64,000 nt of DNA. Origin: Escherichia phage WPEC5. Positions within the stretch are counted from its first letter, which is position 1, and each line of letters begins with the position of its first letter. This document shows, one piece after another, positions 22,540 through 26,342 of the stretch. The position numbers and the translations under genes are program-made. The DNA lies in sequence record PV654397.1, one strand, 5' to 3'. The notes beneath the pieces are model-generated. The model ran no database searches, was not told the DNA's origin, and saw only the letters and a list, made by a program, of their open reading frames with translations.

Positions 22540-22853
22540 TATATTTCAATCTCTATATATTTTTGGGTAATTAAGTAATCCCAGTAGTACTTCACTTGTT
22601 TTTGTATCTCAAGTAAAGCATAAAAATTAATTCTCTTATCCCATACAAGTGATTCCTGAAAAATAAATGATTCATGATCATCTCTGTAATCGCATTCAAG
22701 GAAGTCAGGAATATAATCACAATCGTGAAGATATTCAATCATTAAAGATTCATTACATCTTCTAATGGCAAGGAGCTGGAAATTATCATGATCGAAGAAA
22801 TACATTAAACTAATTGTACCAGGAATGTACTGAATACTGTATAAGAATTTCAT
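22539..22853 (-). CDS. Family A paralog, hypothetical
   Basis: Motif ESFIFQESLVW. Confidence 0.6.
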   Translation of the reverse strand: MKFLYSIQYIPGTISLMYFFDHDNFQLLAIRRCNESLMIEYLHDCDYIPDFLECDYRDDHESFIFQESLVWDKRINFYALLEIQKQVKYYWDYLITQKYIEIEI

Positions 22854-23293
22854 CGTTTGCCCTTATATGCTTCACGTACATATTCATAATCCAAATAAAA
22901 TCTTGTACTATCAATACTTTTAAAGTACCACATAATAACTAAAGTATCTAGTACTTCATCATCATACAAAGTACTATTCTGAAAGTAATACTCTTCACTA
23001 TCCCACGGACCTTTCAGTACTTCAAAGTTCAATTTTAAAGGTCTGCTGCGATTATAAAAACGGATTTCACCACCATAAGCATAACTGATAAATTCTGCAT
23101 CTGGATTGTATTGTGAAAAATCTGCGGGACTTTTGGAATTCAGCCCAAGAATAACTGTAGTTGTGGTAAAATCACTATCCTTGTAGTAGTTACCATTCTC
23201 GGCTTTGTATACTTCTTCGAACTTCCCAGCCTTGATATCTTCAATATATACCTGTAGTTCTTTTGCTTTATCCAGAGCACTTTGTAATGACAT
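22850..23293 (-). CDS. Family A paralog (GPWDSEEYYFQNST subfamily)
   Basis: Motifs SEEYYFQNSTLY, WYFK, FYLDYEYV. Confidence 0.65.
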   Translation of the reverse strand: MSLQSALDKAKELQVYIEDIKAGKFEEVYKAENGNYYKDSDFTTTTVILGLNSKSPADFSQYNPDAEFISYAYGGEIRFYNRSRPLKLNFEVLKGPWDSEEYYFQNSTLYDDEVLDTLVIMWYFKSIDSTRFYLDYEYVREAYKGKR

Positions 23294-23759
23294 TATCTTC
23301 CCCTACAGTATTCTCTACGTATTCATAATCGAAATAGAAACTATCAGAACCAATACTTTTAAAGTACCACATAATTACAATAACATCTAATTCTTCTTCA
23401 TTGTACACAGTACTGTTCTGGAAGTAATATTCTTCACTATCCCACGGACCTTCTAGTACTGAATACGGAATGATTGTGTCATAATCATCGTAATCAGGGC
23501 TGTAAATTATAATATCTTCATCTCTACAATAACTAATGTACTGATTGTACATATGATATTCACAGTCATCAGTATCACCCGTATCAGTGTGTAGTACTAA
23601 TGTTTCTGCACATATCTCTGACTCATCATAATCGTCGCGGTCTTTTACAAAAAATTCAGTATCAGATGTTTTATACACACCAGGCACTGAACCTTCTTGT
23701 ACCATAATCATGTACTCATGAATCTTCTTTGCTTCTTTCAATGCACTTTCTAATGACAT
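23268..23759 (-). CDS. Family A paralog (GPWDSEEYYFQNST subfamily)
   Basis: Motifs SEEYYFQNSTVY, WYFK, FYFDYEYV. Confidence 0.65.
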   Translation of the reverse strand: MSLESALKEAKKIHEYMIMVQEGSVPGVYKTSDTEFFVKDRDDYDESEICAETLVLHTDTGDTDDCEYHMYNQYISYCRDEDIIIYSPDYDDYDTIIPYSVLEGPWDSEEYYFQNSTVYNEEELDVIVIMWYFKSIGSDSFYFDYEYVENTVGEDNVITKCSG

Positions 23760-23761
23760 TA

Positions 23762-24202
23762 CTAATCCCCTGTACTTAAATATTCACATGCTCCCCAGTC
23801 AAGGAAGAAGGGTTCAAAATTCAATTCCTTAAAGTACCACAAAACAACCAAGGAATCAAGCATTTCTTGGTTAAAAATAAGACTCTGTTGGAAGTAATAC
23901 TCTTCAGTACCCCACGGCCCATCAAGTACCCCGAAGTCAACAGGTGTATTTGATGTGTCAAAAGTAATCTTAGTACCTGGAATATATACAAAAAAACTAG
24001 TATATTGACTACATGAAGAGTACTGTATAGTATTGTCTTTATCATGGCCCATAAGTAAAATATCATCAGAGTATGTCTTTATACCTGATAGATAATACTC
24101 ATTACCAAATGCACTTACTTTATCACCATAGAAACCACTTTTTATGTTATCGTGGAAGTGATGTATTTTGTGTGCCAGTTTAAGTGCACTTGCTAAACTC
24201 AT
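23762..24202 (-). CDS. Family A paralog (GPWDSEEYYFQNST subfamily)
   Basis: Motifs TEEYYFQQSLIF, WYFK. Confidence 0.65.
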   Translation of the reverse strand: MSLASALKLAHKIHHFHDNIKSGFYGDKVSAFGNEYYLSGIKTYSDDILLMGHDKDNTIQYSSCSQYTSFFVYIPGTKITFDTSNTPVDFGVLDGPWGTEEYYFQQSLIFNQEMLDSLVVLWYFKELNFEPFFLDWGACEYLSTGD

Positions 24203-24669
24203 ATATCCTCTTTAATAACTCGTAGTAGATCCAAGTCCAGATAGAAGCTAGGACAATCGGTATTATTAAAGTACCACAGAATGACAAGCTTGTCAAGCAC
24301 ATATTCCTCGTAGATAGTATTCTGCTGGAAGTAGAACTCTTCACTTCCCCAGTCATTATCCAGTACTGAATACGGAAGATGTTTCTCTGCTGCACCAGTT
24401 ATAATGTCAGTATATTGTATTAAAATATCAGCATCACGACAGAAGTACATGTAATTATCTTCCAGGTTAACATCACACCCAGTGAGTGTTGTTTCAGAAG
24501 AATCTAAGTTTTCTTCGTACATGTGAATGTACTCACTACTGTCATCGTATATCATTCGACAATAAGCTTTACCTTCCTTGAATAGATACCCATTGAGTTG
24601 ATTGAGTACTATTTCCTTTTTACATAAATCAATTAACTTAGCAATTTCTAATGCTCTTGCAAAACTCAT
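24199..24669 (-). CDS. Family A paralog (GPWDSEEYYFQNST subfamily)
   Basis: Motifs SEEFYFQQNTIY, WYFN, FYLDLDLL. Confidence 0.65.
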   Translation of the reverse strand: MSFARALEIAKLIDLCKKEIVLNQLNGYLFKEGKAYCRMIYDDSSEYIHMYEENLDSSETTLTGCDVNLEDNYMYFCRDADILIQYTDIITGAAEKHLPYSVLDNDWGSEEFYFQQNTIYEEYVLDKLVILWYFNNTDCPSFYLDLDLLRVIKEDI

Positions 24670-24670
24670 A

Positions 24671-24856
24671 TCAACTCCTGTGTTGTGTCTTGATATAATC
24701 TCGGTAAACCATGTGAATATTAGCTATATACAATTCACTAATATCATATGTACCGAAGTACATATCATTCCTAATGCTGTTGTTATGTCTAATATCAATT
24801 ACGAATCGTCGAAGTATTGTATTCATAAATGATTCCATTTGTTCTTTTTTATTCAT
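24671..24856 (-). CDS. Small hypothetical protein (61 aa)
   Basis: Short minus ORF filling the gap between family A genes. Confidence 0.35.
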   Translation of the reverse strand: MNKKEQMESFMNTILRRFVIDIRHNNSIRNDMYFGTYDISELYIANIHMVYRDYIKTQHRS

Positions 24857-25269
24857 AGCTTAAAACGATACCTATCTTTGGAATCAGTCTCTATGCAGAT
24901 TCTTCTATATTCTTTCATCTTCTGTTGGAGTTCAATTACTTCCTCTAGTGTACACAAGTACTTCTTGTCAAATATTAATGACTCTTGAAATATTTCAGCC
25001 TCACCCTGTACTGTTGTATAGTCTTTCATATTTTCTACAATTGTTCCTTTGGACTGATAATCAATGAAACTAAAGTAAGCACCATTAAATTTAATGTACT
25101 GATCCATTTTGTGTTCATAATCACCTTTGTTAAGATTGCAATACACTTCCAGTGAAGTACTAATCTTAGGTATAAACATTGAATAATCATATTTCATATT
25201 ACTTACCTGCATTGAAATAATAGTTACTTGTTGTTGGGGTAGATGTATCAAAGGTGTTTTCTTTAACAT
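24853..25269 (-). CDS. Family A paralog (CNLNKGD subfamily)
   Basis: Motif EAEIFQESLIFDKKY; track start probably too far upstream. Confidence 0.6.
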   Translation of the reverse strand: MLKKTPLIHLPQQQVTIISMQVSNMKYDYSMFIPKISTSLEVYCNLNKGDYEHKMDQYIKFNGAYFSFIDYQSKGTIVENMKDYTTVQGEAEIFQESLIFDKKYLCTLEEVIELQQKMKEYRRICIETDSKDRYRFKL

Positions 25270-25564
25270 ATCTCTTCATTTCATTTTGTATAAAAATCAT
25301 ATCTTCTATTGTACATGAGTACTTATTCTTGTCAAACACCAAAGAAGCTTGAAATAGTTCAACATCATCCAGTACTGTATAATCTGTAATACTTTCAGAG
25401 TTATAGTCGAAGTCATCATGCAATACATCAATGAAATTAAAACACAAATCCGAGTACTGAATATATAAACTCAACTCATGTTCCGAATCACCCTTGACAA
25501 GATTACAGCACAAATCCCACCCCGTTCTGGACTTACAAACGTACATTGAATAATCATATGTCAT
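25199..25564 (-). CDS. Family A paralog (CNLNKGD subfamily)
   Basis: Motif DVELFQASLVFDKNKY. Confidence 0.6.
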   Translation of the reverse strand: MTYDYSMYVCKSRTGWDLCCNLVKGDSEHELSLYIQYSDLCFNFIDVLHDDFDYNSESITDYTVLDDVELFQASLVFDKNKYSCTIEDMIFIQNEMKRYVKENTFDTSTPTTSNYYFNAGK

Positions 25565-25920
25565 TCTGGTATTCCTATATTGAATTTGTATTCTTGATTA
25601 ATACTGACATTGCCTTTATTCAAAGAGTCATACTCTTTCATTTCATTTTGTATTGCAATAACTTCTTCAAATGTACACAAGTACTTCTTATCAAATACTA
25701 ATGACTCCTGGAATAGTTCAGCGGCATCCATTACTGTATAATCCGGCATATCCTGATGCGGATACTGTAATGAATTGTAATCAATGAATGTAAATTTACC
25801 CTGAGTGAAATGAATATACTCATTTGCACTGTGCATCAAATCACCTTTGTTTAAATTACAAAAGTACTGAAAACTGTTCTTAAAAGAATGTACTGATATT
25901 ACAAAATCAAATTCCATCAC
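25561..25920 (-). CDS. Family A paralog (CNLNKGD subfamily)
   Basis: Motif AAELFQESLVFDKKY. Confidence 0.6.
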   Translation of the reverse strand: MMEFDFVISVHSFKNSFQYFCNLNKGDLMHSANEYIHFTQGKFTFIDYNSLQYPHQDMPDYTVMDAAELFQESLVFDKKYLCTFEEVIAIQNEMKEYDSLNKGNVSINQEYKFNIGIPE

Positions 25921-26342
25921 TCTTCTCCTAGATTAAAAAATTTCCAGAAATCAACTTCACCAGTACTGCACCAGATATCTATACATTCCTTGTGAATACA
26001 TTTAATTCTATGCTGGATTTCAACCATCTCTTCTAATGTACAGATGTACTTCTTATCAAATACTAATGCCTCCTGAAACAGTGCAGCATCATCAAGTACT
26101 GTATAGTCCTGCATCTCGATAGATATCCCATGAAACCCAGTACTAAAATCCATCAAATAAAAGTCAGCATTCCAGTACTTTAAAATCTTGTCCCTGGCGT
26201 AGTTTAAATCACCCTTGTATAAGTTACAATGCGTAACTAACTCACCAGTGTACATGAATGTCCTTGCACAAAATTCATTATATTTTATTTGCATCTTCAT
26301 TTCAATCGTAATCTCTACTATAATTAATAAGGTAAACGCCAA
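25917..26342 (-). CDS. Family A paralog (CNLNKGD subfamily)
   Basis: Motif DAALFQEALVFDKKY; true start likely the internal ATG near 26300. Confidence 0.6.
   Translation of the reverse strand: MAFTLLIIVEITIEMKMQIKYNEFCARTFMYTGELVTHCNLYKGDLNYARDKILKYWNADFYLMDFSTGFHGISIEMQDYTVLDDAALFQEALVFDKKYICTLEEMVEIQHRIKCIHKECIDIWCSTGEVDFWKFFNLGEE

Follow-up and report, generated by a model that had tools for sequence, protein, structure and literature searches.

Two families of tandemly arranged genes beside the terminal repeat of an Asteriusvirus jumbo phage and the age of their duplications

More than 30 similar head-to-tail genes were reported in the jumbo coliphage 121Q by Hua et al. 2017 (PMC5646251), in a single sentence that read the array as the product of tandem duplication, and the statement was repeated for phage phAPEC6 (PMC7247149) and in a 2026 review of jumbo phages (PMC13282480). 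In another lineage, Bacillus phage G carries a lineage-specific expansion of ~35 zinc-ribbon genes (Iyer et al. 2021, PMC7824862). Here we describe the 121Q-type locus of Escherichia phage WPEC5 (PV654397.1) in a stretch of 64,000 nucleotides that is called the window throughout. It contains two gene families, which we call A and B, and the explanation that in our opinion probably holds is that these are two large clade-specific families, occupying ~35 kb on the inner side of the left direct terminal repeat (DTR), that arose by old tandem duplication and change today by loss and swapping of members. Large eukaryotic DNA viruses also have multigene families beside their terminal repeats, such as MGF360/505 of African swine fever virus (ASFV) and the host-range and ankyrin families of poxviruses.

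The array in the window belongs to the same genus and lies at the same locus as that of 121Q, with 32 B genes and 41-44 A genes all on the minus strand. Its existence and its origin by tandem duplication have already been published and the finding is in this respect largely ordinary. However, the members are only 17-26% identical on average and cannot be called 'very similar'. What is added to the literature is that there are two unrelated families, that they are ancient, shared with RaK2-like phages and start at the boundary of the DTR, and that they have confidently predicted folds without a known relative in sequence or fold. Phage G resembles this situation as a jumbo phage with tens of tandem small-protein paralogues of unknown role, but it is of another lineage and the fold is unrelated, since A and B lack the zinc-ribbon cysteine pattern and B is predicted to be a four-helix bundle. 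The ASFV and poxvirus families share with the phage arrays the tandem paralogues beside terminal repeats, an evolution faster than that of core genes and copy-number differences between isolates caused by loss and recombination. In contrast, there is no relationship in sequence or fold, and a role in host range or immune evasion is only conjectural for the phage families.

Two gene families at the border of the terminal repeat

Position 1 of phage fEgEco12, its physical left end, aligns to position 64,000 of the window, and since the physical ends and the 20,993-bp DTR of this phage were determined experimentally (PMC13070987), the window corresponds to the left 64 kb of the genome of an Asteriusvirus (121Q/PBECO4-like) jumbo coliphage, in reverse complement. 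A megablast search with positions 22,000-27,000 matched 35 phage records. These are without exception jumbo phages of Escherichia or Salmonella that belong to the 121Q/PBECO4 group, with WPEC3 as the best match (99.1%) and 121Q at 85% nucleotide identity. WPEC3 and the window are 98-99% identical, the genomes differing by ~1.5-3%. All substantial open reading frames (ORFs) are on the minus strand. The DTR boundary maps to ~42,336, within a 250-nt gap preceding the gene 42044-42241 and ~95 nt before the first B gene. Gene starts were taken from the longest ORF, so that some are over-extended, and the families were built on our own gene calls by all-against-all BLAST followed by iterative hidden Markov model (HMM) searches. 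The main features are:

7241..36095, minus strand: family A array, at least 44 paralogues of 100-212 amino acids (aa), plus 19 unassigned ORFs and five interspersed B genes
36085..42241, minus strand: family B array, 27 of the 32 paralogues in an unbroken run, all overlapping or abutting (HMM, alignment)
20755..21151, minus strand: two B genes embedded in the A array (HMM, E ~1e-19)
33816-34264 and 35523-35747, minus strand: further B genes within the A array (HMM)
42336..64000, minus strand: DTR portion, the upstream context of the arrays, ~57 small genes with gaps of ~75 nt, many preceded by perfect matches to sigma-70 promoters

Family A has 41 members by iterative HMM, a number raised to 44 by an HMM of the conserved core, which is a lower bound; some of the 19 unassigned ORFs show a degenerate form of the family motif. 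This motif reads [ST]-E-E-x-[FY]-F-Q-x-S-[LT]-[VI], in some members with an extra E, and only its F and Q are invariant in an alignment of 43 sequences. The 32 members of family B (65-94 aa) carry the motif LGTNYQE, in which G, T and Q are nearly invariant. While A proteins are acidic (median isoelectric point (pI) 4.8, 35 of 41 members below pI 6), B proteins are mostly basic (median pI 8.7), and a comparison of the two families by hhalign detected no relationship (probability 0.1%). All B representatives tested match phrog_4148, and family A matches phrog_9317, 12674, 15629, 13866, 33987 and 19795, with E values of 1e-18 to 1e-62 for all these matches. The PHROG families concerned are without exception labelled 'unknown function', and there A is split into many groups which are united by the HMM used here.

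Genes within the arrays are packed much more tightly than those of the DTR, the median gap being -5.5 nt in the A array and -10 nt in the B array versus 75 nt in the DTR, and 87-100% of the junctions in the arrays overlap or are no more than 10 nt apart. The base composition also changes along the window: the G+C content is 0.31-0.35 in the arrays and steps up to 0.38-0.40 in the DTR part (42336-64000), and the AT skew is strongly negative in the B array (-0.20 to -0.22 at 36000-40000) compared to about -0.05 in the A array.

Blocks of related neighbours and their origin

The original prediction, made from the letters of the window, was that adjacent genes form near-identical clusters created by recent and still ongoing tandem duplication. 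Translation of the ORFs confirmed that every one of these clusters is present where it had been placed:

22850-23293, 23268-23759, 23762-24202 and 24199-24669, minus strand: block 1, four long-type A genes, 31-41% pairwise protein identity over aligned codons, synonymous divergence (dS) 1.1-2.3
24853-25269, 25199-25564, 25561-25920 and 25917-26342, minus strand: block 2, four short-type A genes, 36-46% pairwise protein identity over aligned codons, dS 0.9-2.1
31315-31665 and 31662-31973, minus strand: pair of short-type A genes, 58% aa identity, dS 0.52
31963-32469 and 32546-33106, minus strand: pair of long-type A genes, added here to the predicted clusters, with a short-type relic between them at ~32468-32545
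36968..37416, minus strand: pair of B genes, 49% identity, dS 1.1
38038-38295, 38285-38515 and 38505-38741, minus strand: trio of B genes with MQN/SxMIYLT, 45-61% identity, dS 0.56-1.19
41223..41644, minus strand: pair of B genes, 51% identity, dS 1.5

As the identities in this list show, the clusters are far from near-identical, with 31-46% protein identity in the four-gene blocks and 45-61% in the other groups, and even the best DNA repeats are just 100-300 nt long and 60-82% identical. The motif by which block 1 had been defined holds exactly for two of its genes (GPWDSEEYYFQNST...MWYFK), the other two being variants of it (GPWGTEEYYFQQSL...LWYFK and NDWGSEEFYFQQNT...LWYFN); the motif given for block 2 was found in all four genes, in the form CNL[NVY]KGD...DYT..D...FQ[EA][SA]L[IV]FDK at 24853-26342. 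The true starts of the first and last genes of block 2 are probably internal ATG codons, leaving 24853-25197 and 25917-26300. Upstream of block 2 the non-coding gap 26343-26502 is unusually long (160 nt) and contains G-rich and C-rich runs (GGCCGCAGGGGGGGG ... CCCCGCCGC); it showed neither a convincing promoter nor a convincing terminator. A sigma-70-like site at 26305-26277 was considered as the promoter of a block operon and dropped because it overlaps the probable start codon of gene 25917-26300.

Neighbours are nevertheless more alike than distant members, as had been predicted, and in both families this exceeds chance when identity is compared with position by permutation. The mean pairwise identity of adjacent pairs is 0.219 in family A versus 0.172 for the family, and 0.303 versus 0.265 in family B. 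Of the 41 A genes, 9 have their best partner directly next to them (permutation mean 2.0, p = 0.0016) and 15 have it no more than two positions away (p = 5e-5); the corresponding numbers for B are 12 and 17 of 32 (p < 5e-5). Mantel coefficients (rho) were -0.13 for A, reached by one of 2000 permutations, and -0.10 for B, reached by 78 of 2000.

A more direct trace of the duplication process is found at 31.5-32.6 kb, where the junction GGATATAGTTATGAAGTATAAAATGCTGTATACA, at which the end of a long-type gene overlaps the start of a short-type gene, is present three times. A truncated ORF starts at the middle copy; it has 26 codons (MKYKMLYTKDMIYVELEVNDDVSINR*, ~32468-32545) and is the relic of a short-type A gene. 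The repeated junction together with this relic indicates duplication of a unit of two genes, part of which was later lost by deletion. The core of the original prediction, that the blocks formed by local tandem duplication and then diverged, is thus supported by the relatedness of neighbours, the thrice-repeated gene junction and the relic gene. The blocks would accordingly have arisen by local tandem duplication, which at least once would have involved a unit of two genes.

Age of the duplications and present-day change

The question then is when these duplications took place. Values of dS were calculated by the Nei-Gojobori method (NG86) and trees were constructed by neighbor joining (NJ) with bootstrap. 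The youngest array pairs in the window, 31315/31662 and 38038/38505, have a dS of ~0.5. Orthologues in the window and 121Q typically differ by a dS of ~0.3-0.7, and because the youngest window pairs equal or exceed this value a recent origin is not supported. Most family genes have a syntenic reciprocal best match among 121Q genes about 319-408, in a one-to-one relationship, and the genes of block 1 are 69-90% identical in aa sequence to their own 121Q orthologues. When genes of the block 1 type from the window, 121Q, A4 (a phage compared through alignments only) and JNE01 are placed in one NJ tree, each block 1 gene pairs with its own 121Q orthologue with bootstrap values of 98-100; two of the window genes also group with an A4 orthologue (98-100), and gene 24199 in addition with a JNE01 gene (98). 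The block 2-type genes of five genomes separate into five orthogroups (bootstrap 93-100), and both copies of the B pair 41223..41644 are orthologous to 121Q genes. Syntenic orthologues of the copies were found in 121Q, A4, Turkey3 or Ecwhy_1, and for some of them in JNE01, where they are 30-60% identical.

The families extend beyond the genus. Klebsiella phage RaK2, of the sister genus Alcyoneusvirus, has at least 26 A and at least 13 B members within 40 kb. In the RaK2 region 11500-40300 A and B genes are interleaved and not sorted into two arrays, and the A motif is mostly TEEGYFQxS. A Foldseek search of viral models (BFVD) detected A-like folds only in 121Q, RaK2, Serratia phage BF and Cronobacter phage GAP32. 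Since every copy has its own orthologues and the families are also expanded in RaK2, the duplications must predate Asteriusvirus, and the view that they are recent becomes untenable. The blocks are ancient, strongly diverged tandem duplicates within two huge orphan families. Duplication of the blocks would have preceded the split of the Asteriusvirus lineages, and that of the families as a whole the split from the RaK2-like Klebsiella phages, each copy having since been kept as a distinct gene, presumably under purifying selection.

Copy number nevertheless varies among the phages compared, and one difference is particularly clear:

24682..25210, minus strand: replaced cassette, comprising a 61-aa ORF (24671-24856) and a block 2-type gene (24853-25197), different in Ecwhy_1

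In Ecwhy_1 this 529-bp stretch is replaced by 496 bp carrying a fifth block 1-type gene, a homologue of 121Q gene 370, while the flanks are 97.6% and 98.1% identical. The 61-aa ORF lacks the family motif and had no detectable homologue in 121Q. Turkey3 and 121Q possess an additional block 2-type gene plus a fragment, both missing from the window. The 31.3-kb pair corresponds to a single copy in 121Q that is orthologous to 31315 (79% versus 59%), several B genes are missing in 121Q, and of the trio type 121Q has two. The gene 25199, lacking in WPEC3 according to the annotation, turned out on translation to be intact there and merely unannotated.

These replacements raise the possibility that the blocks were assembled mainly by horizontal exchange of cassettes between co-infecting related phages, with insertion guided by homology. 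The clean 0.5-kb replacement between flanks that are 98% identical is what such an exchange should look like, genes of the 24853 type and of the 121Q-367 type have a patchy distribution that does not follow overall relatedness, and the dS between window and 121Q orthologues varies from 0.08 to 2.9 along the region, which argues for a mosaic history. However, exchange moves existing members and cannot create a family that is unknown outside the phage clade, and local duplication of a unit has left direct traces in the repeated long/short junction and the relic gene. We therefore consider exchange an unlikely main source of the blocks, while as a process acting on blocks formed by old tandem duplication it has a place in the mechanism that we favour: genomes would now diverge through loss of single copies and through homologous-recombination swaps of ~0.5-kb cassettes between related phages, a form of birth-and-death evolution with a slow birth rate.

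Another way to obtain similar neighbours is concerted evolution, in which gene conversion or unequal crossing-over homogenizes adjacent copies. Patches with a low proportion of synonymous differences (pS) do exist between neighbours, in the N-terminal thirds of 31315/31662 (pS 0.16) and 38038/38505 (pS 0.22) and in the C-terminal third of 22850/23268 (pS 0.49 versus ~0.8 elsewhere). But these patches span just 25-49 codons and are noisy, most pairs are near saturation over their full length, and the trees group genes by orthologous position and not by genome, which is the opposite of what homogenization predicts. There is, in our view, only a small chance that it accounts for the blocks.

Still less probable is the recent and ongoing duplication originally proposed, according to which neighbouring copies are young. 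It would explain why neighbours are the closest relatives and why copy number varies among closely related phages, and WPEC3 indeed has two tandem copies (33626-33967 and 33982-34320) where the window has one (35751-36095). This is the youngest duplicate seen, but even its copies share only 85% nucleotide identity (dS 0.28), while the genomes differ by ~1.5-3%. Its N-terminal half has a proportion of nonsynonymous differences (pN) of 0.25 and a pS of 0.20, its C-terminal half a pN of 0.03 and a pS of 0.27. Within the blocks, identities of 31-46% and dS values of 0.9-2.3 do not fit with young copies, nor does the presence in other genomes of a separate orthologue for every copy, and no paralogue pair exceeds 74% protein identity in the loci of the four genomes screened (window, 121Q, JNE01 and RaK2). 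In the 'accordion' expansions of poxviruses the copies are recent and near-identical, unlike those of the phage arrays. A genomic accordion or any other recent duplication should leave nearly identical, lineage-private DNA copies, whereas the repeats seen here reach at most 82% over no more than 300 nt. Where close relatives differ in copy number, members that had already diverged have been deleted or replaced. Overall, the arrays are subject to birth-and-death evolution and recombinational cassette exchange, with no sign of active duplication.

Predicted proteins, expression and possible role

Searches for relatives outside the phage clade gave little. There was no consistent Pfam-A match, either with 10 representatives or with 43 A and 33 B sequences and even with E values up to 0.1, and ten non-family ORFs inside the array gave no Pfam match. 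A search of PDB with profiles and with folds detected no match for A or B. Word-indexed profile searches were made against 5.8 billion proteins, and essentially everything that they returned came from ~350-kb Asteriusvirus-like contigs. An exhaustive profile search of 1.84 billion representatives gave 105 matches, all but one being small proteins with the same placement of the motif; nine clusters were traced from these, and the named ones belong to Asteriusvirus phages, E. coli assemblies and the Klebsiella phages RaK2 and K64-1. The match P0159 was rejected as a spurious translated repeat, and a 103-aa 'Actinomadura' match on a 563-bp contig looks like contamination.

AlphaFold2 gave confident models for both families. 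That of B (predicted local distance difference test (pLDDT) score 95) has four helices with GT at a turn; that of the A gene 23268 (pLDDT 86, predicted template modelling score (pTM) 0.83) is an alpha/beta fold with an N-terminal helix, a seven-strand sheet, a helix containing EEYYFQ and two more helices. The median ratio of nonsynonymous to synonymous divergence (dN/dS) between the window and 121Q is 0.24 for A (33 pairs) and 0.35 for B (23 pairs) compared to 0.15 for flanking genes, so that the orthologues are under purifying selection while evolving faster than the flanking genes. Of 36 family A pairs, 26 have a higher pN in the part before the motif than from the motif to the C-terminus (Wilcoxon p = 0.0013), pS being similar in the two parts. 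The virion proteome of phAPEC6 contains nothing between gp347 and gp549. As the array genes of that phage are gp426c, gp442c and gp470c, the A and B proteins are probably non-structural, a conclusion drawn from a related phage and not from this isolate. The strongly acidic character of A would suit an anti-restriction protein of the Ocr/ArdA type, but no Ocr- or ArdA-related fold or sequence was found.

With respect to transcription, the DTR part contains 12 perfect TTGACA-16/17-TATAAT sequences (44094-60597) on the minus strand, the gene strand, in the spacers between small genes, and a total of 106 sigma-70-like sites versus 71 +/- 9 expected. By consensus match these form a striking set of putative host-type early promoters. 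About 14 TTGCAA-16-TATAAT sequences and several TTGACA-17-CATAAT sequences with a TG extension are also present in the DTR. A scan of the window found no perfect sigma-70 promoter inside the arrays. The few real gaps there contain matches to 10-11 of 12 consensus positions at 42,299-42,272 (before the first B gene), 35,195-35,167 and 29,951-29,923, the last directly after a terminator-like hairpin. In the DTR a hairpin with a 12-bp stem, AAAGGGATTGACTCCGGTCAGTCCCTTT, followed by GCTATTATAT, is repeated on the minus strand at 43794-43821, 46054-46081, 49332-49359 and 53349-53376. It has a -35-like TTGACT buried in the stem and a -10-like TATTAT after it and may be a combined terminator/promoter or a regulatory element.

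The DTR also contains small paralogue pairs unrelated to A and B, at 46709-47284, at 47597-48001 and 61283-61585, and at 48088-48411 and 55287-55610; a further pair, 59596-59865 and 61638-61916, has the highest protein identity in the window (64%). In fEgEco12, a close relative, the genes 5284-5583, 11479-12156 and 16161-16745 are among the few DTR genes with an annotated function. Annotations in this DTR include 'protein spackle', a DksA-like zinc finger, a GNAT acetyltransferase and a 'serine/threonine protein kinase', and, if correct, are consistent with an early host-takeover region.

What the A and B proteins do can be proposed only tentatively. They might be accessory proteins that are not part of the virion, are produced in the early or middle phase of infection and act inside the infected cell, the arrays being long polycistronic units downstream of the promoter-dense DTR and read in the same direction. 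The invariant acidic EExxFQxS helix of the A proteins, together with the helices following it, could be a common functional module, while the faster-evolving N-terminal beta-sheet part differs between copies, and the copies may therefore act on different targets in the host or the phage. A more specific and, we believe, rather less likely version sees the arrays as a diversified set of effectors that act early, are not part of the virion and are encoded immediately behind the terminal repeat: each A paralogue would bind one common partner through its EExxFQxS helix and different host targets, for example defence systems, through its N-terminal sheet, the B proteins would in parallel serve as small basic binders of nucleic acid or protein, and the whole would be the phage counterpart of the terminal multigene families that set the host range of ASFV and poxviruses. 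The least credible idea is that E-x-x-[YF]-F-Q-x-S is a site for a 3C/NIa-like protease and the A proteins its processed substrates: EEGYFQGS (21653-22099), EEMYFQGS (17366-17848) and several RaK2 members literally fit the tobacco etch virus (TEV) consensus, ExxYxQ followed by G or S. But the position after Q, where such proteases need a small P1' residue, is highly variable (N, Q, Y, E, G, M, L, K, T, H or A) and holds G in only two window members, the model places the motif (residues 109-115) in a helix of a compact domain with a pLDDT above 90, and no such protease was seen, though none was searched for. The variable residue and the helical model make a cleavage site very unlikely.

Several points weigh against the combined account of old duplication and accessory function. 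The ages are derived from NG86 on short genes near saturation of dS, and the trees are NJ rather than likelihood trees. The low-pS patches between neighbours suggest some recent exchange, and the arrays are therefore not completely static. A formal distinction between loss and gain would require a reconciled tree of the whole genus. Sigma-70-like sites are not enriched within the arrays (115 found versus 114 expected), and the functional part of the account has been read from position, packing and the pattern of conservation only.

Whatever their role, ~75 genes, more than a tenth of the gene count of a 350-kb phage, belong to these two orphan families. Both have confident new predicted folds, are conserved across RaK2-like jumbo phages and lie at the boundary of the terminal repeat. 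If they were host-takeover or counter-defence effectors, this would account for much of the large size of these genomes, and the arrays would provide a tractable system for the birth-and-death evolution of phage effector families.

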